From the NCBI GenBank assembly GCA_041664925.1, contig JBAYJV010000002.1:72302-136301 (forward strand): 64,000 bases of DNA, written 5' to 3'. Below, piece by piece: positions 1,288-43,638 of this stretch (its first letter is position 1; each line of letters starts with the position of its first letter). The stretch is from Minisyncoccota bacterium (lineage in GTDB: Bacteria > Patescibacteriota > Minisyncoccia > JBAYJV01). A model generated the notes under the pieces. The model was not told the origin of the DNA. It was given only the letters and a program-made list of their open reading frames with translations, and did not search any database. Position numbers and translations under genes: made by a program.

Positions 1288-1839
1288 TTATATTTTTATA
1301 TTTTTTTGAAGCATTATTTTAGCTCGATTGATTCTTGCGCCAACACCGCCAATAGAAATTCTTAAAATATCGCTAATTTCCTTATAGGATTTTTCTTCTA
1401 AATAGAACAATGTAATCGGTTCTCGGTATTTCAAGGGCAGAAGGCTTAAATATCTCTTAATTTGCTCTTTCGTTTCTTTGTCCGATACCTGTTTGTAAAT
1501 GTGTCTATCTTCTAATAATTGATGATGATCCCAGCCATCTTTATCCAATAATATCTCTTTTCTATGTTTCTTTATGATATTGATTGCCTCGTTGTGCGCA
1601 ATGCGATAAATCCAGCTAGAAAACTTTTGTTTAGTGCTAAACCCCATAAGATTTATGAACGCTTTTATAAAAGTATTTTGAACCGCATCTTCGGCTTTTT
1701 GCCTATTTTTTATCAAATACAAAACATATCGGAGCAATCGATCCTGATATCGTTTAACAATTTCTGCGTAAAGTTCTTGATCTTTTGTTCGCACCAACTC
1801 TACGAGTTTTTCATCACTCAATTTTTCTATATTTTCCAT
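1288..1839 (-). CDS. ECF-type sigma-70 family RNA polymerase sigma factor
   Basis: 183 aa; region-2 like QDRLLRYVLYLIKNRQKAEDAVQNTFIKAF...FSSWIYRIAHNEAINIIKK and region-4 HTH LPLKYREPITLFYLEEKSYKEISDILRISIGGVGARINRAKIML. Confidence 0.8.
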   Translation of the reverse strand: MENIEKLSDEKLVELVRTKDQELYAEIVKRYQDRLLRYVLYLIKNRQKAEDAVQNTFIKAFINLMGFSTKQKFSSWIYRIAHNEAINIIKKHRKEILLDKDGWDHHQLLEDRHIYKQVSDKETKEQIKRYLSLLPLKYREPITLFYLEEKSYKEISDILRISIGGVGARINRAKIMLQKNIKI

Positions 1840-1938
1840 ATTATATCCACAATCATACTACATCTTCATTATTCAATTTCTTTCACAAATATGCAAGACT
1901 TAAAACAAAAACCCCATATTCTCTATGGGGTTTTCCTA

Positions 1939-6496: not shown

Positions 6497-6865
6497 ATGA
6501 AAAAAGAATTAATAGCGCCATGTGGAATGAATTGCGGTGTTTGTCTTCATTATCTGCGGGAACATAATAAGTGTCCCGGTTGTTTTACTGGCAGAAAAGT
6601 CAATCAAGCGTGCATAAAATGTGGCATTAAACTTTGCAAAGACAGGCGAGGAGAGTATTGTTTTGATTGTGATAAATTTCCTTGCGAACGGCTTAAGCGC
6701 TTGGATAAAAGATATTGCAATAGACATGGAATGAGCGAAATAGAAAATCTAAAAACCATCAAAACAAAAGGAATAAAATACTTTTTAACTCAGGAAGAAA
6801 AGAGATGGGTAAATCCAGATGGCACATATTGTGTTCATGATAAAAAACGATATTTAATTAAATGA
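6497..6865 (+). CDS. cysteine-rich DUF3795-like protein
   Basis: CGMNCGVCLHY...CPGC...CIKCGIKLC...CFDCDKFPC pattern. Confidence 0.5.
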   Translation: MKKELIAPCGMNCGVCLHYLREHNKCPGCFTGRKVNQACIKCGIKLCKDRRGEYCFDCDKFPCERLKRLDKRYCNRHGMSEIENLKTIKTKGIKYFLTQEEKRWVNPDGTYCVHDKKRYLIK

Positions 6866-9923: not shown

Positions 9924-11338
9924 ATGAACGGAGATAAAGAAGTTAGTGGTGTAGTTGAGTTAATAACGGCTGCGGCAGAGCATAGGGACGATCAAGGCTA
10001 CAATTATTGTCTCAGTGGAGATCTTGGTCAAATGTCAGTTCAGAAAGAGTTTCTGATGAGCAGAGGAATGGACGTTGGGCAGCGAGATGTCTATCCTGCT
10101 TTAAGAAATGAGGATGACTTTAGAAGAGCCCTTGGGCTTATATGGGGAAATAAGATTGAGGGATGGTGGAATTACTCAAAAAATATTCTTATGGAGTATG
10201 AAATTTGTACCGAAGATGAATTCATGCAAGCCCTTGAAATTGCATGTGCAAGGGAAAATCCAAAAGGAGGTCGAATGGTAACTAGTAGACCATGGTACGA
10301 TTCAAAGGATGGAATTGCGGCATCTCTCGTTTCTCTGGAGAAATTTCTTGAATTAGTTCAGGCGCGACACGAAGCAGGTTATAGTAGGGGCGAAAGGCTT
10401 AGACAATGGGTTGTTTTAGGGCGTTATTGGCTTGACACATGTGGGAATTGCTGGAAAGCAAAAAAGGATGCTCCTTGGAATGTTATTCCAAAGGAAGCGT
10501 TTCCTGATATTCCAGATGTTGTGTCGGAATTTGAAGCAGAATGGGGGCCTGCAATGAAGGACACAATATTCTCTGCGGGTGGTGGCTTGCCTCATCCTCA
10601 TCTTCTTTGTCCTCATTGCCATAAAGGATGGACAATTAGAAATTGCCACGACACGATTGTTCTGCGTAATTTCAAGAGTTTTTCTCTTGTAAACTTCGTA
10701 GGAAAAACTCTTGGAGAAGTTAGAAAAGCTTTTTCTAAAAGACGGGATGCCATTTACGTTCTGCAACCAGACACTATGATTCGCAATGATAGATTTATCG
10801 ATCATTCTCCCGAATATCCCGGAGCCACCGAGGATTGGGAGAAGAATGAGGAAAAAATCGCTATGGGTGGGTTGGTATTGAAGACGGTATTGACGATAAC
10901 TATGTTATTCAGAAGGGCGATGAAGGACTTTTTACCGTTTGGACGTATGAACATACAGATTGCCATAAAGAGCGAATTGCCAGGAAGAAACAGTATCGCT
11001 TTATGGCGATTTTCAAGAGTGCAGGGTTTAAGGTTGTCAGAACAAAACGAATTCCTAACGAATATTGTCCTTGTGATTACTGTGCGCCATGGTTTTTGAT
11101 GGAAACGGAATTCGGAACCATCAAGATTGGTTGGCGCAAGCGAGTTATTAATATAAACTGGAGCGATGTCGCCAAGAAACTTGAAGAACGCGGATACGAG
11201 AATGCTAGTCAGAAAATCTTGGCGCTTTTTGAAAGCGAGGATGTTACAAAAGACGGATCAAACATTCACGCTTGGGGATATGAAAAAGCCAAGGGTTATC
11301 TACGGCAAATCCGCAAATACTTGAAATCTTTGGAATAA
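9924..11338 (+). pseudogene. hypothetical protein gene interrupted by a frameshift at an A6 run (10852-10857); frames 0 and 2 together encode about 470 aa
   Basis: frame-0 ORF (true start ATG 9924 after AAAGGGGGAACT) turns into low-complexity read-through after ...EDWEKNEEK, while frame 2 is open from 10850 and continues as ...YGWVGIEDGIDDNYVIQKGDEGLFTVWTYEHTDCHKE...MAIFKSAGFKVV to 11338; could instead be an assembly indel. Confidence 0.5.
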
Positions 11339-11378
11339 GTATACAAGAGTGGGCAACCTAGTATGGTTGCCCATTTTC

Positions 11379-11407
11379 TTGACATTTGAATATTTACTTG
11401 CTACGAT
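11379..11407 (+). promoter_or_regulatory. class-I promoter TTGACA-17-TACGAT followed by AGTTATTAAAAAAGCCAAGGAGG
   Basis: consensus spacing; leader motif variant. Confidence 0.5.
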
Positions 11408-11440
11408 ATTAGCAGTTATTAAAAAAGCCAAGGAGGAGCA

Positions 11441-11902
11441 ATGGCAGCAGGCGATACTGAAAGAGGACGAAATAGTGCATACGTTGTTGCTATTAGAATA
11501 TTGGCGGTAATAATATTGACTTCAGGAATTTTCTATTTTGGATCTTTGTGTCAAAGTAACAGATTTGCTCGAGATCGAGAGGATCTTGCTTACTATCAGA
11601 AAACTTATCTGCACAAGTCAGGATACATGGAAGGTTATGGAAATTATCTTCTTCGTTCTTTTGATGGTGGAAAAAATTGGTTTGCTATTGACCTTGAACG
11701 AGCCAAAAACCATGAAGTTGTAATTCTGGGTCCAGTCGAAGATATTTATTCTGGACTGATGGCCAAGATTCAAGGATTCGATGATTTGAGCACCTATGTA
11801 AGAGAACATGGACCGATTACTTTGAGTGGCGAGAATGCAGCTCAAGAAAAAGCGATTCTTGAAAAAGCAGGATTTACTGTGACCGAAACAGTCAAGCCAT
11901 AG
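11441..11902 (+). CDS. hypothetical membrane-anchored protein
   Basis: 153 aa; TM VVAIRILAVIILTSGIFYF; terminator GAGGCACTagcaaAGTGCCTC+T7 (11912-11939). Confidence 0.5.
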   Translation: MAAGDTERGRNSAYVVAIRILAVIILTSGIFYFGSLCQSNRFARDREDLAYYQKTYLHKSGYMEGYGNYLLRSFDGGKNWFAIDLERAKNHEVVILGPVEDIYSGLMAKIQGFDDLSTYVREHGPITLSGENAAQEKAILEKAGFTVTETVKP

Positions 11903-13568: not shown

Positions 13569-13626
13569 AAATAAAAAAATCGGCTGTATTGCCGATACCT
13601 AACTTCCAACTTCTAGCTTCTGAATT

Positions 13627-14667
13627 CTAGCTATCCTTCGTGGGTAGTTTTTTTGTTTTCTCAGAAGACTCAATGGCAATTAAATTATCATTGAACTTTT
13701 CTAACCTTTTTTGACCGGATTCGTAAGTTGAATTAGCATGATTTAAATGTTTTCCCAAAAGATCAAAATCTTCGGCGAATTTTCCAAAATCATTTTTTAA
13801 GCGGGACAAATTTATAAGAATTTCTTTAGCGCCTTTTTCAATTTGAAGTCCCTTGAGACCGATCAAAATTGCCTGAAGATAAGCATAAAAGCTATTTGGG
13901 GAAACAGGAACGACTTTCTTTGATAGGGCATAACTGGTAATATTTGACGATTCTTTTTCTTTTAGAATAATTTCATAATAGACATTTTCGGCAGGTACAT
14001 ACATCAGAGCAAAATCAGAAGTTCCTTCAGCGGGTCTAATGTATTTTTCAGCGATACTATCAACATGTTTTTTTACATCACGCATAAACTGTTTTTTTGT
14101 GCTGATTTTTTCTTCGTGAGTTTTCGAAGCGATAATTTGTTTGAAATTTTCCAGAGGAAATTTTGAATCAACAGGAATCATCATATCGCGCAATCTCACG
14201 ATGGCATCAACCGTTTCACCATCGCGAAAACTATATTGAAGACTATAGTTTTCTCGCGGAAGAATTTGCTCTAAAATATCTGCTAAAAAATATTCTCCTA
14301 AACCGCCGCGCAATTTCGGCGCTTTTAAAATATCATGAAGCGAAGAAATATCTTTGCCGACTTCAAAAATTTTCTTTGATGATTCCTCAAGTCCAGTAAG
14401 TTTATTGGTTACTGACTGAACGACCCTTTGAGTATTGTCAAGGCGTGAATTTAGGTCTTGTCCTTGGCGTTGCATCATTTCCAAATTTTCTCTAAGCCTC
14501 AGATTAACCTGGCTAGTCACTTCATTTAATTGACCCAACATTTTTTCCGATAAGCCAGTTAAATCATTGGTATTTTTGGCAAAATGTTTTTTTGTAAAAT
14601 AAAAAACCAACCAAGAAAAAAAACCAAGAACAGCGATTAAAATAATAATTAATGAAATATTTTCCAT
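13627..14667 (-). CDS. rmuC: DNA recombination protein RmuC family
   Basis: N-terminal TM, coiled coil, KLRGGLGEYFLADILEQILP...DAIVRL...PVDSKFPLENF matches RmuC core. Confidence 0.75.
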   Translation of the reverse strand: MENISLIIILIAVLGFFSWLVFYFTKKHFAKNTNDLTGLSEKMLGQLNEVTSQVNLRLRENLEMMQRQGQDLNSRLDNTQRVVQSVTNKLTGLEESSKKIFEVGKDISSLHDILKAPKLRGGLGEYFLADILEQILPRENYSLQYSFRDGETVDAIVRLRDMMIPVDSKFPLENFKQIIASKTHEEKISTKKQFMRDVKKHVDSIAEKYIRPAEGTSDFALMYVPAENVYYEIILKEKESSNITSYALSKKVVPVSPNSFYAYLQAILIGLKGLQIEKGAKEILINLSRLKNDFGKFAEDFDLLGKHLNHANSTYESGQKRLEKFNDNLIAIESSEKTKKLPTKDS

Positions 14668-17967: not shown

Positions 17968-18173
17968 TTGACATTTATTCTTTTAAGAATATAATTGATT
18001 TATCAATTGAATACTTCCCAAGACCGTTAGGGTTCCGGCATGCCGGAATTAAACATCCTACGCAGGAAAACACATAGATTTATTTCAATCTGTTTTGCGG
18101 TCTTTGGATCGCAATTTTTAATTGTATAAAACATCAAAGGTCGAAAGTTCGGATTTGTGTAAAATCCAATCAT
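17968..18173 (+). promoter_or_regulatory. rplJ promoter (TTGACA-16-TATAAT) and roughly 170-nt structured 5' UTR (L10-leader-like)
   Basis: consensus promoter 17968-17995; long untranslated leader with palindrome TTCCGGCATGCCGGAA before rplJ, position typical of L10(L12)4 autoregulatory leader. Confidence 0.45.
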
Positions 18174-18692
18174 ATGAAACTAAAAAAGAACGATAAAATA
18201 AAGCTAGTTAAAGAATTAGCTGAAAAAGCGAAACAGGAACAGACTTTTATAATTACAAATTATCACGGTCTTACATCTCAAGATTGCAATGATTTCAGAT
18301 TAAAGCTTTTTGAAAAAGGGATGATGTGCAAGGCAGCCAAGAAAAAGCTTATTGACATCATCTTAAAAAATGCAAAGCTTGAAGATATTGACATAAGGTC
18401 AATCGAAGGACAATTAGCGCTTTCATGGGGCGAGGATGGCGCCGAATTGGCAAAAACCATTAGTCAGTTTGGAAAACAAAAAAGCAAAGACATGATTATT
18501 GCTGGCTTTCTTGACGGCAAATTTCTTTCGAAAGAAAGCGTCATTGCTCTTTCAAATCTTCCAAGTCTTGCAATATTGCGAGCTCAATTCGTTGGTGCTC
18601 TAAAATCAACAATGTTTGGATTAGTTAATGTCTTAAATGGCAATCAAAGAAAACTTGTCTTGACTCTCAATGCAATTGCTAAATCAAGATAG
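18174..18692 (+). CDS. rplJ: 50S ribosomal protein L10
   Basis: 172 aa; gene order L10-L7/L12; typical L10 length and basic N-terminus. Confidence 0.8.
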   Translation: MKLKKNDKIKLVKELAEKAKQEQTFIITNYHGLTSQDCNDFRLKLFEKGMMCKAAKKKLIDIILKNAKLEDIDIRSIEGQLALSWGEDGAELAKTISQFGKQKSKDMIIAGFLDGKFLSKESVIALSNLPSLAILRAQFVGALKSTMFGLVNVLNGNQRKLVLTLNAIAKSR

Positions 18693-22512: not shown

Positions 22513-22556
22513 GTCATCCTGAGTGAAGCGAAGGATCTCATTTGGTCTTTTTTCTG
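22513..22556. repeat. left half of MITE-like element (GTCATCCTGAGTGAAGCGAAGGATCTC...)
   Basis: matches left ends of 27766, 35281 and 62567 copies; truncated by the promoter motif and tRNA. Confidence 0.4.
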
Positions 22557-22600: not shown

Positions 22601-22674
22601 TGCGGGGTCGTCTAACGGTAGGACCGCAGACTCTGAATCTGTGTATCCAGGTTCGAATCCTGGCCCCGCAGCAC
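22601..22674 (+). tRNA. tRNA-Gln (anticodon CUG), U1-A72, G73
   Basis: TGCGGGG TC GTCT AACGGTA GGAC C GCAGA CTCTGAA TCTGT GTAT CCAGG TTCGAAT CCTGG CCCCGCA G; anticodon loop CUCUGAA; U1:A72 and G73 typical of tRNA-Gln. Confidence 0.8.
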
Positions 22675-26069: not shown

Positions 26070-27326
26070 ATGTCTGACTTGTTTGAAGAAAAATTTAAAG
26101 AACAATTAACAAAAGAAGCGCCCTTAGCTGATCGCATGAGGCCTTCTGATTTTGATAATTTTTTTGGCCAAGATGATTTGGTTGGTGAGGATAGTCCCTT
26201 GAAGCGTTCTATTCAATCCGATAATTTAGCGTCTTTAATTCTTTGGGGGCCGCCCGGATCAGGAAAAACCACTCTCGCTAGAATTATTGCCAAAAAAACC
26301 AAAGCATATTTTTCTAAATTTTCTGCCGTTACTTCTGGTGTCAAAGATATTCGCTCAGCGATTGCCGATGCCAGAGACAGGCGCAAATTTACTGGACAAA
26401 AAACGATTCTTTTTATTGACGAAATTCATCGCTTCAATAAAGCTCAGCAAGATGCCCTTTTGCCTCATGTTGAAGACGGAACAATTGTTTTAATCGGCGC
26501 AACTACAGAAAACCCATCGTTTTCCGTCATCTCGCCTTTGCTTTCTCGCTCTGCGGTTTATATTTTAAAATCACTCGACAAAGAAGCAATGAAAAAGATT
26601 TTAAAAGTTGCTCTAAAAGATAAAACCAAAGGATTTGGATTATTAAAACTAAAAATTGAAGAAAAAGCGCTTGATCGTTTAGCAAACTACGCTGACGGCG
26701 ATGCAAGAGTTGGTCTTAATGGTCTTGAATTTGCTACCAATTATTTTATAGAAAAAGAGCAAAAGACGATTAAAGACAAAGAACTTTCCTTAATATTAGA
26801 AAAACACGCTTTGCGTTACGATAAGCAAGGCGAAGAACATTACAATGTTATTTCCGCTTTCATCAAATCAATGCGCGACTCTGATCCCGATGGCGCGCTT
26901 TACTGGTTGGCGCGAATGATTGAGTCAGGAGAAGATCCAAGGTTTATCGTCAGGCGCATGGTGATTTTTGCTTCAGAAGATATTGGCAATGCCGATTTCC
27001 GGGCGCTTTTGATTGCCAACGCGGTTGCGCAAGCGGTTGAATTTGTGGGACTTCCTGAAGCGCAAATCAATTTAGCCCACGGCGTAACCTACTTAGCGAC
27101 TGCCAAGAAATCCAACGCTTCTTATGCCGCGCTTCTTGAGGCAAAAGAAGACGCAAAAAAAGGCGCTTTTGGCGTGCCTTTGCATTTAAGAAACGCTACA
27201 ACAAATTTAATGAAAGAATGGGGATATGGCAAAGATTACAAATATGCGCATAATTTTCAAGATTCAAAAGTGAAGCAATCTCATTTTCCTAAAGAAATCG
27301 GCGAAAAGAAATACTATAAATATTAG
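26070..27326 (+). CDS. rarA: replication-associated recombination protein A (AAA+ ATPase RarA/MgsA)
   Basis: Walker A LWGPPGSGKTTLARIIA, Walker B ILFIDEIHRFNKAQQDALLPHVEDGTIVLIGATTENP, RarA C-terminal domain. Confidence 0.85.
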   Translation: MSDLFEEKFKEQLTKEAPLADRMRPSDFDNFFGQDDLVGEDSPLKRSIQSDNLASLILWGPPGSGKTTLARIIAKKTKAYFSKFSAVTSGVKDIRSAIADARDRRKFTGQKTILFIDEIHRFNKAQQDALLPHVEDGTIVLIGATTENPSFSVISPLLSRSAVYILKSLDKEAMKKILKVALKDKTKGFGLLKLKIEEKALDRLANYADGDARVGLNGLEFATNYFIEKEQKTIKDKELSLILEKHALRYDKQGEEHYNVISAFIKSMRDSDPDGALYWLARMIESGEDPRFIVRRMVIFASEDIGNADFRALLIANAVAQAVEFVGLPEAQINLAHGVTYLATAKKSNASYAALLEAKEDAKKGAFGVPLHLRNATTNLMKEWGYGKDYKYAHNFQDSKVKQSHFPKEIGEKKYYKY

Positions 27327-27430: not shown

Positions 27431-27477
27431 AACCCTGAAGTACAATAAATTGACTTCAGGGTTATTGATTGCGTAAT
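27431..27477. repeat. hairpin repeat AACCCTGAAGT-N11-ACTTCAGGGTT + ATTGATTGCGTAAT
   Basis: near-identical inverted copy at 49988-50063. Confidence 0.5.
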
Positions 27478-27505: not shown

Positions 27506-27643
27506 AAAAAAAGAGGGGGTCCGACCTACTCGTCAGACCCCCCTGGCAAGAGACCTTTGCCGCAGCGCCGGATCATCGGCAAGCAGACTGGCAAAGGAGG
27601 TATGAGAGATACGGCAGGCTCTCGTAAAGTCTCCGCACTCTCA
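27506..27643 (-). ncRNA. candidate small RNA (about 135 nt) with perfect-consensus promoter and intrinsic terminator
   Basis: minus sense TTGACA(27677-27672)-16-TATAAT(27655-27650); GC-rich body with CCUCCUUUGCC anti-SD-like stretch; terminator GGGGGGTCTGacgagtagGTCGGACCCCC+T7; no ORF. Confidence 0.45.
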
Positions 27644-27702
27644 CTATCCATTATACTCCTATTTTAAGTTTTGTCAAGAGTTTTTTGAGAAAAAACGACC
27701 TT

Positions 27703-27731
27703 TTGACATGATATGTTTTTTTTGATAAGAT
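27703..27731 (+). promoter_or_regulatory. class-I promoter TTGACA-17-TAAGAT with AGAACTTAAAAT leader, separated from its gene by a MITE-like insertion
   Basis: consensus. Confidence 0.45.
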
Positions 27732-27765: not shown

Positions 27766-27836
27766 GTCATCCTGAACGCAGTGAAGGATCCCGTGTTTAT
27801 GATTATCACGAGATTCTTCGTTTCACTCAGAATGAC
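27766..27836. mobile_element. MITE-like 71-bp element with inverted ends TGTCATCCTGAACG ... CACTCAGAATGAC, in the 5' UTR of the dsbA-like gene
   Basis: full-length related copies at 35281-35355 and 62567-62635; shared core GTCATCCTGAGCGCAGCGAAGGATC. Confidence 0.5.
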
Positions 27837-27846
27837 GGTGAACTTT

Positions 27847-28599
27847 ATGGAATCACAAAAAAATATTTTCGTTATCGCGATTTCAATTATTGTCGCTGGC
27901 TTAGTGATTGGCGGAGCAGTCCTTTACAATGGCTCGCAAGTTGCTAAAGAACAAAAAGCTGATTTAACCGACACTCTTCCTTTGCCACCAGATGAAGTAA
28001 ATGTCCCTACTACCATCACCATAGACACAAAAGGACATCCTTTTATTGGCAAAGAAGATGCGCCTGTAACAATTATTGAGGTCAGTGATTTTGAGTGTCC
28101 ATTTTGTAAGACTTTTGCGGCAGAAACGATGCCGAAACTCAAAGAAACTTACATTGATACTGGCAAGGTGAAATTTTTCTTTGTTGATTTTCCTTTGCCC
28201 TATCATCCTAACGCCCAGAAAGCCGCTGAAGCAGCGTTATGTTATGTTGATCAGGGAAAGGATTACTATGACATTTATAAAAAATTATATGAAAAATCAG
28301 ATGCCCTTGAAGTGGAAAATCTGAAAATCTATGCAAAAGATTTAAAAGTTGATACCAAGAAATTCAATGCTTGTTTAGATGATGGGAAATTTGCTGATCA
28401 AGTTAAGGCAAGCTTTGAGAATATTAATAAAGTTGTTCAGGAATCAAATTTGACTAACTTTGGAACGCCGGCATTTTTTGTCAATGGCAAACCCCTTATC
28501 GGCGCTCAAAAATTTGATGCATTTCAGGGAATGATTGACGATGAATTAGAAACAACAACTACCACAACAAGCACAACAGCCACAAGCACGACAAAGTAA
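27847..28599 (+). CDS. DsbA-family thiol:disulfide oxidoreductase, membrane anchored, Thr/Ser-rich tail
   Basis: start at MESQKN (the longer ORF N-terminus is MITE sequence); TM, then CPFC active site in VTIIEVSDFECPFCKTF and DsbA-like alpha domain. Confidence 0.75.
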   Translation: MESQKNIFVIAISIIVAGLVIGGAVLYNGSQVAKEQKADLTDTLPLPPDEVNVPTTITIDTKGHPFIGKEDAPVTIIEVSDFECPFCKTFAAETMPKLKETYIDTGKVKFFFVDFPLPYHPNAQKAAEAALCYVDQGKDYYDIYKKLYEKSDALEVENLKIYAKDLKVDTKKFNACLDDGKFADQVKASFENINKVVQESNLTNFGTPAFFVNGKPLIGAQKFDAFQGMIDDELETTTTTTSTTATSTTK

Positions 28600-41936: not shown

Positions 41937-42027
41937 GCAAACAACAGGGGATAAGTCGTCCCCTGTTTCTTTTTGCCTAATTTATCAAAAAAAGTTAAAA
42001 TGTTAAAAAGGAGGTATTTTTTGATTT

Positions 42028-43638
42028 ATGGATTCTGTTAATATATTACTGACGATATCGGCAACTTTCAACCTTGGATTAGGATTTTATATTTATATTC
42101 AACGAAAGAAAAATCCAGTCAATGTCGCTTTTAGTTTAATTACTTTAAGTATATTTTTTTGGACAATAGCCATGATCGCTTATCGGTGGAGTGGTAGTTA
42201 TTATTCGGCGCTTTGGTGGTGCCGAATTTTATATTTCTTTCCGGTCTTTATAGCGCCTAGCCTCTTATATTTTTCTTTAGTTTTTCAAAGAATTGAAGTT
42301 AAAATTAAAAAGTCAGAAATTTTTCTAATTTATCTTTTTCCTTTTATTATTGGTGCCTTATCGTTTGTTCCTAATTTTATTATTAATAATGTTGTTTTAA
42401 GGCATGGAGCGGAAAAAGAAATTTATTTCGGCGCAGGTTATCCTGTTTATTTTGTTTTTTATTTCGTTTATTTTAGCTGGACATTTTTTAACTTTCTAAA
42501 AAAACTCAATCAAGCGGACATTCTTGGCAAAAAACAGATGCGCTGGGTGATTTTAGCAACTTTTACTCCGGTTACTGCTGGTTTAGTAACTAATTTAATT
42601 TTGCCCTGGGGATTTATCTTTTCGTATAACTGGATAGCCCAGGTGAGTACAATCTTTTTTATTGCTGGCATTGCTTATGCAATTGTTAAATACCAGCTTT
42701 TAAATATAAAAATAATTGTTGCTCAAATTATATCTTTGTTTTTAATTTCTATTTTATTTATTAATATTTTTTCTTTTGATAGTTCTTGGAGGTTGATGAT
42801 AAACCTAGGTGTTTTTTTGTTAGGCTTGATCTTCAGCGCAACTCTTATTAGATCAGTTATCAACGAAATGAATCAAAAAGAAGAGATTCAAGATCTTGCA
42901 GGTAATCTTAAAAAAGCCAACGATGAGCTTAAAAAGTTAGATGAAATAAAATCGGAATTCATTTCTATAGCATCACATCAATTACGAACGCCCTTATCCG
43001 CAATTAAGGGTTATGCCGCAATGCTCCTAGACGATGTTCAGGATCCCGAAGAAAAAGAAGCTTTAAATAAAATTTATCTTTCAAATGAGCGGCTAATTAA
43101 GCTAGTTAATGATCTTTTAAATCTATCACGCATCGAGAGAGGAAAACTTGAATTTATCTTTAGACCTTGCCAGCTGGCTGATTTACTTGACTCTGTTGTC
43201 AGTGAATTTCAAATGATTGCCAAAAGACGTGGATTAAAACTTGCGTACGAAAAAGTCAATCTGCCCTTCATTACCGCAGATGAAGACAAATTGCGCCAAG
43301 TTTTTCTAAATATTATAGATAATGCGATAAAATATACACTCAAGGGTAGCGTGACGGTAAAAACTCTTCTCGACAATGATTCTATTGTGGTAGCGATTCA
43401 AGATACTGGCGTTGGCATGAAACCGGGAGATCAAAAGCCGGTATATGAAAAATTCCAAAGAGGCAAAACTAGCGCTGTTGTTAATCCTGATGGAACCGGT
43501 ATCGGTCTTTATATTGCCAATAAGATTATCGAAGCTCATCATGGAAGAATCTGGTTTGAAAGTCCAGGTATTAATTTGGGTACGACTTTTTATGTGAAGC
43601 TTTCTCTAACCAACGATAAATTATCTTCATGGGCATAG
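42028..43638 (+). CDS. sensor histidine kinase with polytopic N-terminal membrane domain
   Basis: H-box ISIASHQLRTPLSAIKGYAAML, N-box IIDNAIKYT, G-boxes DTGVGM and GTGIGLYIANKIIEAHHG. Confidence 0.8.
   Translation: MDSVNILLTISATFNLGLGFYIYIQRKKNPVNVAFSLITLSIFFWTIAMIAYRWSGSYYSALWWCRILYFFPVFIAPSLLYFSLVFQRIEVKIKKSEIFLIYLFPFIIGALSFVPNFIINNVVLRHGAEKEIYFGAGYPVYFVFYFVYFSWTFFNFLKKLNQADILGKKQMRWVILATFTPVTAGLVTNLILPWGFIFSYNWIAQVSTIFFIAGIAYAIVKYQLLNIKIIVAQIISLFLISILFINIFSFDSSWRLMINLGVFLLGLIFSATLIRSVINEMNQKEEIQDLAGNLKKANDELKKLDEIKSEFISIASHQLRTPLSAIKGYAAMLLDDVQDPEEKEALNKIYLSNERLIKLVNDLLNLSRIERGKLEFIFRPCQLADLLDSVVSEFQMIAKRRGLKLAYEKVNLPFITADEDKLRQVFLNIIDNAIKYTLKGSVTVKTLLDNDSIVVAIQDTGVGMKPGDQKPVYEKFQRGKTSAVVNPDGTGIGLYIANKIIEAHHGRIWFESPGINLGTTFYVKLSLTNDKLSSWA

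Follow-up and report, generated by a model that had tools for sequence, protein, structure and literature searches.

Several bacterial small RNAs (sRNAs) are known for a C/U-rich seed, among them RsaE/RoxS, LhrC, FsrA and the actinobacterial 6C RNA. They are products of stand-alone genes with a sigma-70 promoter and an intrinsic terminator, measure 100-150 nt, contain few hairpins, and combine a C/U-rich stretch complementary to Shine-Dalgarno (SD) sequences with a fast-evolving scaffold in which only short motifs are conserved. Here we describe a locus that is alike in all these respects, at positions 27506-27677 (minus strand) of a stretch of 64,000 nucleotides, hereafter the window. The host is a metagenome-assembled genome of Candidatus Paceibacterota, as its RarA protein is recorded at NCBI, and belongs to the Candidate Phyla Radiation (CPR); the locus is the spacer between rarA and a DsbA-like gene (dsbA). 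We consider it very probable that this is a real gene for a non-coding RNA of ~135 nt, equipped with a promoter and a terminator of its own and confined to one lineage of Paceibacteria, and we predict that it is expressed. As for its role, the best overall explanation would be a lineage-restricted, structured and trans-acting sRNA that regulates translation at ribosome-binding sites, to which we give an even chance of being right.

The Paceibacteria RNA differs from the C/U-rich-seed sRNAs in that it matches none of their Rfam families in sequence or structure, and its CU-rich element is single and partly or wholly paired rather than present in several loops. They also have no counterpart to its invariant apical loop, UACGAGAGC. 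Membership of the catalogued sRNA families, RsaE/RoxS included, was rejected on the same basis, with no Rfam 15 covariance-model match at or near the gathering score. The family is therefore one not catalogued before. As a bacterial sRNA it is of an ordinary kind, found here in an unusual host, and if pairing with SD sequences were all it did, the kind of regulator would be ordinary too.

CPR bacteria have tiny genomes and few recognisable regulators, and our literature searches returned no sRNAs or regulatory RNAs described for them, and nothing relevant for the motif string. A conserved and strongly promoted sRNA family would open a first way into their post-transcriptional control, since its structure is defined and it comes with two conserved motifs and a candidate target, the mRNA of a kinase with a seven-transmembrane (7TM) receptor. 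The seven sequences at hand offer a seed alignment for a new RNA family, and the invariant loop, which resembles the sarcin-ricin loop (SRL) of 23S rRNA, provides a concrete element with which to ask about a protein or RNA partner.

A transcription unit in the rarA-dsbA spacer

A first-pass annotation of the window had described here a perfect TTGACA-16-TATAAT promoter, a GC-rich body and a terminator, and all three are found on the minus strand where it had placed them. The -35 hexamer TTGACA (27677-27672, extended to TTGACAAA) is separated by a 16-nt spacer from the -10 hexamer TATAAT (27655-27650), which together score 12/12 and form the sole such site between 24000 and 31000. Over the 64 kb there are 2 perfect promoters of this type versus 0.08 expected, and 2 were reached in 0/100 shuffles. 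By the spacing rule for sigma-70 promoters, transcription is predicted to start at 27642..27645, 5-8 nt after the -10 hexamer. The body of the RNA (about 27644-27506, 135-139 nt) has a G+C content of 57%, versus 35.7% for the window, and it closes with an intrinsic terminator (27506..27543), a 12-bp stem with 8 G-C pairs and a 6-nt loop (GGGGGGTCTGAC-gagtag-GTCGGACCCCCT, 27543-27514) followed by CUUUUUUU, in which the U-run reads CTTTTTTT in DNA letters (27513-27506). The transcript is predicted to end there, at its own terminator, before the convergent rarA gene (26070-27326, plus strand; MgsA_C/AAA). Its minimum free energy (MFE) is -65.5 kcal/mol, versus -47.1 +/- 3.8 for 200 dinucleotide shuffles, none of which was as stable (z = -4.88), and the predicted fold consists of three local hairpins, P1, P2 and the terminator, with the 5' and 3' ends unpaired with each other.

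Relatives were sought on contigs of RarA relatives (74-82% identity) and by one pattern scan of a metagenome collection. A unit of the same type, with a promoter pointing away from dsbA, a GC-rich structured RNA and a strong terminator, occupies the rarA-dsbA spacer of six further lineages: L129, whose DsbA is about 95% identical to that of the window, L004, L008/L009, L200, L103/L104 and L091, where the contig ends inside the RNA and leaves only its 3' part. The promoters are near-identical: the -35 extension TTGACAAA is kept in L129, L004, L008, L103 and L200, and the -10 hexamer is TATAAT in the first four and TACAAT in L200. All homologous RNAs fold better than their shuffles (z from -3.1 to -6.6), and every one ends in a strong terminator, the terminator sequences being unrelated to each other. 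L129, for instance, shares about 92% identity with the window over the promoter and the 5' domain but is not alignable to it in the terminator or the remaining spacer. The length goes from roughly 100 to 160 nt in the relatives, against ~135 nt in the window, and the architecture varies as well, with three hairpins in the window, a multibranch fold in L008 and a long rod in L200. The recurrence of promoter, body and terminator in six lineages, together with compensatory changes in the stems and the lack of a conserved frame, bears out the proposal of a compact, independent non-coding unit convergent with rarA.

Other relatives lack the unit at this locus (L005, L090, L010, L092, L105 and L108). 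L090 has another gene in the spacer, and L010, L092, L105 and L108 differ in neighbourhood; L010 and L030, the relevant CPR genomes among the RarA matches listed, are both without the element. L005 keeps the same genes around the spacer, where three tandem copies of ~47 nt (aaggttctcaggtaattctgaggttctt..., 11300-11470 in the minus-strand view) replace the sRNA. L090 and L091 encode an identical RarA (P0006) and differ directly downstream, with a convergent protein-coding gene in the former and the sRNA terminator in the latter, so that, even inside one population at the species level, the rarA-dsbA spacer is a hot spot of variation. At the same spacer, L202 carries about 1 kb of unusual sequence with C-runs and G-runs.

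The invariant loop, the CU-rich element and a candidate target

The 5' domain folds into hairpin P1 (27602..27644 in the MFE fold), with an outer stem GUGAGAG/CUCUCAU, an inner stem UGCGGAG/CUGCCGUA and a 13-nt apical loop whose 3' part is UACGAGAGC (27618..27626), with a C-GAGA-G tetraloop core. This loop, which the first-pass annotation had overlooked, is the most strongly conserved element of the RNA: it occurs once in the window and is invariant in five lineages (window, L129, L004, L008 and L200), preceded by 2-4 variable loop nucleotides and borne by four different stems (UGCGGAG/CUGCCGUA, UGUAGGG/CCCUACA, AGCGACU/GGUCGUU and GGCGG/CCGCC). In a hand-fitted alignment of the loop-closing stem of these five lineages, 94% of cells are paired and 6/7 pairs have changed on both sides, a degree of covariation equalled by 0/500 shuffles, and registers slid along the alignment pair in 29-50% of cells. 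Between the window and L129, pairing in P1 is kept, with G-C replaced by A-U and G-U by G-C. A segment at the 5' end that resembles a second SRL-like motif ('GGAUAGU..GAGAG') is confined to the three closest lineages.

Downstream of P1 lies the CU-rich element AUACCUCCUUU (27593..27603), whose ACCU is free of pairing and whose CCUUU makes up the 5' arm of hairpin P2 (CCUUUGCC ... GGCAAAGG, 27554..27597 in the MFE fold), whose apex is variable. The base of the P2 stem is kept between the window and L129 through a change of GCC/GGC to GUC/GAC, and the apex of L129 is shorter. The first-pass annotation had read two mutually exclusive pairings into this region, and the segments it relied on do exist, namely CCTTTGCC (27597-27590), GGCAAAGG (27561-27554), TTGCCG (27582-27577) and CGGCAA (27562-27557), but a switch between CCUUUGCC/GGCAAAGG and UUGCCG/CGGCAA finds no support in conservation, as the closest homologue, L129, does not have the inner segment. 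Its other suggestion, a stretch like the anti-SD of 16S rRNA, fared better: ACCTCCTTT is present at 27601-27593, and, poly-T aside, CCUCC is the one 5-mer that five homologues have in common (0/5000 dinucleotide shuffles), even if it is mostly base-paired in them. The CU-rich variants read AUACCUCCUUUG in the window, ACUACCUCCUUUG in L129, GACCUCCUUACC in L008, UUACCUCCUACC in L091 and UUCCCUCCUUGC in L103. The element is complementary to the strong AAGGAGG SD sequences found at about 19/56 genes of the window, roughly a third.

The length of perfect complementarity singles out targets more specifically than duplex energy does. Among the 56 start regions of the window, the longest perfect complement to the CU-rich element belongs to a sensor-kinase gene (HisKA_7TM/HisKA/HATPase_c, ATG at 42028, plus strand), where AAAGGAGGUAU (42007..42017) faces the sRNA AUACCUCCUUU over all 11 nt of 27593-27603. 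In L008, the top of 21 start regions is the orthologous kinase, with 10 nt, UAAGGAGGUC opposite GACCUCCUUA. The two pairings share a core of 8 nt; the flanks of this core are not the same in the window and L008, and in both lineages they are complementary on either side. The kinase mRNAs depart there from the usual complement of the 16S tail, so that the extra pairing would be specific to the sRNA. The N-terminus of the kinase, MD(S)VNI, is conserved between the window and L008.

We propose base-pairing in trans because of the anatomy of the RNA, that is, its autonomous promoter and terminator, its rapidly evolving scaffold and its short conserved motifs. The CU-rich AUACCUCCUUU would imitate the anti-SD of 16S rRNA and pair with the SD region of selected mRNAs, blocking the loading of the ribosome, and the mRNA of the 7TM-receptor histidine kinase would be the best candidate among them. 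Since the element is partly held in P2, pairing would begin at the exposed ACCU and then open P2, which would cost about 6 kcal/mol. The invariant loop UACGAGAGC could act as a second functional module, either a second seed or a protein-binding site. Pairing with SD sequences as the actual mechanism is a tentative proposal that we hold at somewhat less than an even chance.

Repression of two-component systems by sRNAs acting at the ribosome-binding site is known from enterobacteria, where OmrA/B target ompR-envZ and MicA targets phoPQ. The logic proposed here would be similar, an sRNA acting on the start region of a sensor kinase and encoded, in this case, beside the envelope-related dsbA. There is however no homology to those sRNAs and no evidence of Hfq, and the target in Paceibacteria is put forward from complementarity in two lineages.

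A number of observations weigh against a trans-acting sRNA of this kind. L005 keeps the same gene neighbourhood without the RNA, which is therefore dispensable for relatives. L103 has neither hairpin P1 nor the loop motif. The complement of the loop (GCUCUCGUA, with up to 1 mismatch) occurs in the window at chance level, with none near a start on the right strand, and a search of rarA and dsbA in five lineages gave no such site either. The CU-rich element is not in a favourable state for a seed either: CCUCC is largely base-paired in most homologues and fully so in L103 and L129, in the window ACCU alone is unpaired and opening the CU-rich stretch costs about 6.4 kcal/mol, L004 has CACCUCC within the terminator arm, and L200 has UCCUU in place of CCUCC, with only UUUUCCUUGU. 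Duplex energies between the CU-rich region and all start regions do no more than rank the strong SD sequences; an RNA bearing CCUCC pairs with every one of them, and such scores are therefore not discriminating. The kinase mRNA itself is a lead only, singled out post hoc in two lineages (p about 0.005-0.01 by our rough estimate), and its SD-like AAGGAGGU lies 13-15 nt from the ATG, unusually far (42007-42030, plus strand, in the window; 20805-20833 in L008).

Other readings of the locus

The first alternative to a pairing sRNA is a protein-binding or decoy RNA that imitates rRNA. The C-GAGA-G core resembles the SRL of 23S rRNA (AGUACGAGAGGACC, helix 95) and ACCUCCUU resembles the 3' tail of 16S rRNA, so that the RNA could titrate a factor that recognises those sites (for example a GTPase, a nuclease or toxin directed at ribosomes, or a factor for assembly or maturation) with no pairing to mRNAs. 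The likeness is considerable in places. Over the 8 nt of UACGAGAG the RNA is identical to the universally conserved SRL, and in L004 over 11 nt (UAGUACGAGAG); the SRL in the 23S rRNA of a related CPR bacterium (L108) reads GAUAGUACGAGAGGACC. As in the SRL, the GAGA tetraloop is closed by C-G at the apex of a hairpin. That the motif stays invariant while the stem changes wholly fits recognition by a conserved macromolecule. An mRNA complement of the loop was not found at window starts or in rarA and dsbA, and ACCUCCUU(U/A) equals the 16S tail. On the other hand, none of the five lineages has GGACC, the 3' side of the SRL; their loop is followed by C and then by the stem, and its 5' side varies in length (2-4 nt). 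We therefore rejected membership of the sarcin-ricin motif proper: C-GAGA-G is present in 5 lineages, but the bulged-G or loop-E module (5' AGUA opposite 3' GAA/GGACC) is absent, and the RNA is not rRNA. Besides, each RNA has one copy of the motif, unlike typical sequestering RNAs, L103 has none, the resemblance was noticed post hoc, and the locus is linked to no candidate partner protein. We regard an rRNA mimic as unlikely. Its more specific form, in which the RNA would use both likenesses to act as a decoy or sensor, is quite improbable. If it were true, the partner would be a factor that damages ribosomes or takes part in their maturation, for example a ribotoxin that cleaves the SRL, of the PIN/VapC type or another, or a GTPase or nuclease binding the 16S 3' end; the RNA would then serve to protect or tune ribosomes, which are few in an ultra-small symbiotic cell.

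Alternatively, the unit could be mainly a cis-acting element of the spacer with a functionless RNA product, one that stops or collides with transcription of rarA, stabilises the 3' end of its mRNA, or modulates the dsbA promoter. The unit is always found in the same spacer, and the -35 of its promoter lies about 25 bp from that of dsbA, which is part of a divergent promoter-like site, TTGACA-17-TAAGAT with TG (27703..27731, plus strand); the same back-to-back arrangement exists in L129, L004, L008 and L103. In L004, L008 and L200, moreover, the terminator hairpin of the sRNA abuts the rarA stop codon and is the sole hairpin downstream of rarA. A cis-acting element would nonetheless leave unexplained the invariant 9-nt loop on a covarying stem, and a 5' domain conserved next to spacer that is not alignable. 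A separate hairpin serves rarA in the window (27433-27461), 50 nt ahead of the terminator of the sRNA; the latter lacks a U-run when read on the plus strand, and complementarity to the rarA or dsbA mRNA was not found. We judge a purely cis-acting role improbable. A riboswitch or attenuator was rejected as well, given that the minus strand downstream holds only the 3' end of the convergent rarA and that the body varies in architecture.

A diverged housekeeping RNA, of the 6S, signal recognition particle (SRP), transfer-messenger (tmRNA) or RNase P type, could have been missed by the Rfam models in CPR bacteria, whose RNAs are often divergent; the promoter of consensus type, the high GC and the strong structure, all in a reduced genome, would be in keeping with this, and the L200 RNA folds as a long rod. 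The Rfam scan that the first-pass annotation had proposed was run with Rfam 15 on the window (gathering threshold), on the region and on five homologous loci (both at E <= 10). It returned no family at the locus, only noise, and the three tRNAs detected in the window are all elsewhere; ARAGORN found no tRNA or tmRNA at the locus. On these grounds tRNA, tmRNA, SRP RNA and RNase P RNA were rejected. The RNA is alike to 6S RNA in being small, abundant-looking, highly structured and transcribed from a strong promoter, but it does not form an end-to-end rod with a central bubble and its two ends do not pair in the window, which 6S RNA requires; with an architecture that differs between homologues and no Rfam match, 6S RNA was rejected too. 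Close relatives show three hairpins, a multibranch fold or a rod, and the locus of L005, L010, L092 and L105 has no RNA at all, so that the RNA is too variable for an essential one. A housekeeping RNA is very unlikely.

The region had been described as free of open reading frames (ORFs), which is not literally so, since it contains a 41-aa ORF (27651-27526, minus strand) and a 23-aa ORF starting with GTG; what stands is that neither is conserved. A gene for a small protein is extremely unlikely: AGGAG precedes the 41-aa ORF by four nucleotides, but its ATG overlaps the -10 hexamer and hence lies upstream of the predicted transcription start, and the frame suffers a 2-nt indel in L129, is a different one in L008, lacks an ATG in L004 and meets a stop after 3 codons in L103. 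The substitutions compensate RNA stems rather than being synonymous, a Pfam search of the ORF gave no match, and no gene is called there by the JGI or ENA pipelines. Finally, a chance promoter-like sequence beside an ordinary terminator is just as implausible: AT-rich genomes do have many promoter-like hexamers (26 weak sites in 7 kb versus 17.7 expected), but a perfect 12/12 site is far rarer than that, and six other lineages have kept this promoter, with TTGACAAA and the spacer, along with a structured body.

Wider searches and other features of the window

Beyond the syntenic site, a strict scan for the hairpin gave no further copies in ~240 kb of CPR DNA, and 3 weak 5-bp cases in unrelated genomes (1.08 Mb); the matches that BLAST returned from phage genomes are all of 26-37 nt and due to chance. 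The pattern TTGACA-N16-18-TATAAT-N12-42-TACGAGAGC was scanned in viral contigs and in metagenomes. All 9 matches in the former are due to chance, and the 89 in the latter are mostly chance or coding (for example the start of a protein beginning MYES...), with L129 as the only clear homologue. One metagenome contig of 36% GC, L128, with many small ORFs on the same strand and a phage- or plasmid-like appearance, has at about 1700-1900 (minus strand) a promoter, a hairpin GCACCUACGAGAG-CGCUCCUUUAU-CUCGUAGGUGC and a terminator. It holds both motifs, placed otherwise, with UACGAGAGC in the stem and CUCCUUU in the loop, and may be a distant relative of the sRNA family.

We also considered a wider family that would include a group of soil metagenomes together with L131, L136 and L141, all sharing the succession '-10, GATAGT, hairpin loop ...UACGAGAG'. 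The soil group, with 50-59% GC (L113, L115, L133, L142, L148, L149, L152, L162, L163, L166, L186 and L187), shows a cassette with a near-identical promoter and leader, TTGACAAAGATAGTATGGCAGCTTATAATATGGATAGATAGTAAGGCACCATAGCATATACGAGAGC.ATGAGAAGAGGGAATCG, before different genes, and repeated GATAGTA boxes that look like operators. It was rejected as a member: the 3' strand of its hairpin varies (UAUG, CAUG, AAUG, CAGG) without compensating changes in the 5' strand, and the cassette is the 5' leader of different genes. By this comparison of stems, the cassette is structurally unrelated to the CPR RNA.

Contigs identical to that of the window are present in JGI, ENA and SRA assemblies. On the far side of the spacer, the 5' untranslated region of dsbA (27766-27838, plus strand) is an imperfect inverted repeat, GTCATCCTGAACGCAGTGAAGGATCC ... 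GAGATTCTTCGTTTCACTCAGAATGAC, of which there are further copies at 22513-22540 (plus strand), single and preceding the tRNA at 22601, and at about 1500-1590 of L129. We take it to be a widespread repeat that gives rise to spurious 'SLRMT/FAQNDK' peptides. A long ORF starting with GTG at 27781 crosses this repeat, and the real start of the DsbA-like thioredoxin gene is therefore the ATG at 27847 (plus strand).

The other perfect TTGACA-N16-TATAAT of the window lies at 17968-17995 (plus strand). It is followed by ~110 nt without an ORF that adopt a closed multibranch fold (z = -4.0), and a terminator-like UUGCGGUCUUUGGAUCGCAAUUUUU (18095-18119) closes the unit; a gene that looks leaderless follows shortly after, at 18174. 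Judging from this layout, 17968-18119 looks like a second candidate sRNA unit. Many genes of the window have, 6-10 nt before the ATG, a -10-like TATAAT/TAAAAT box with no SD sequence, with examples at 6497, 6889, 8508, 13626-14667 (minus strand), 18174 and 62140. This suggests that many mRNAs of the window are leaderless, and the genome seems to use two distinct modes of initiation.

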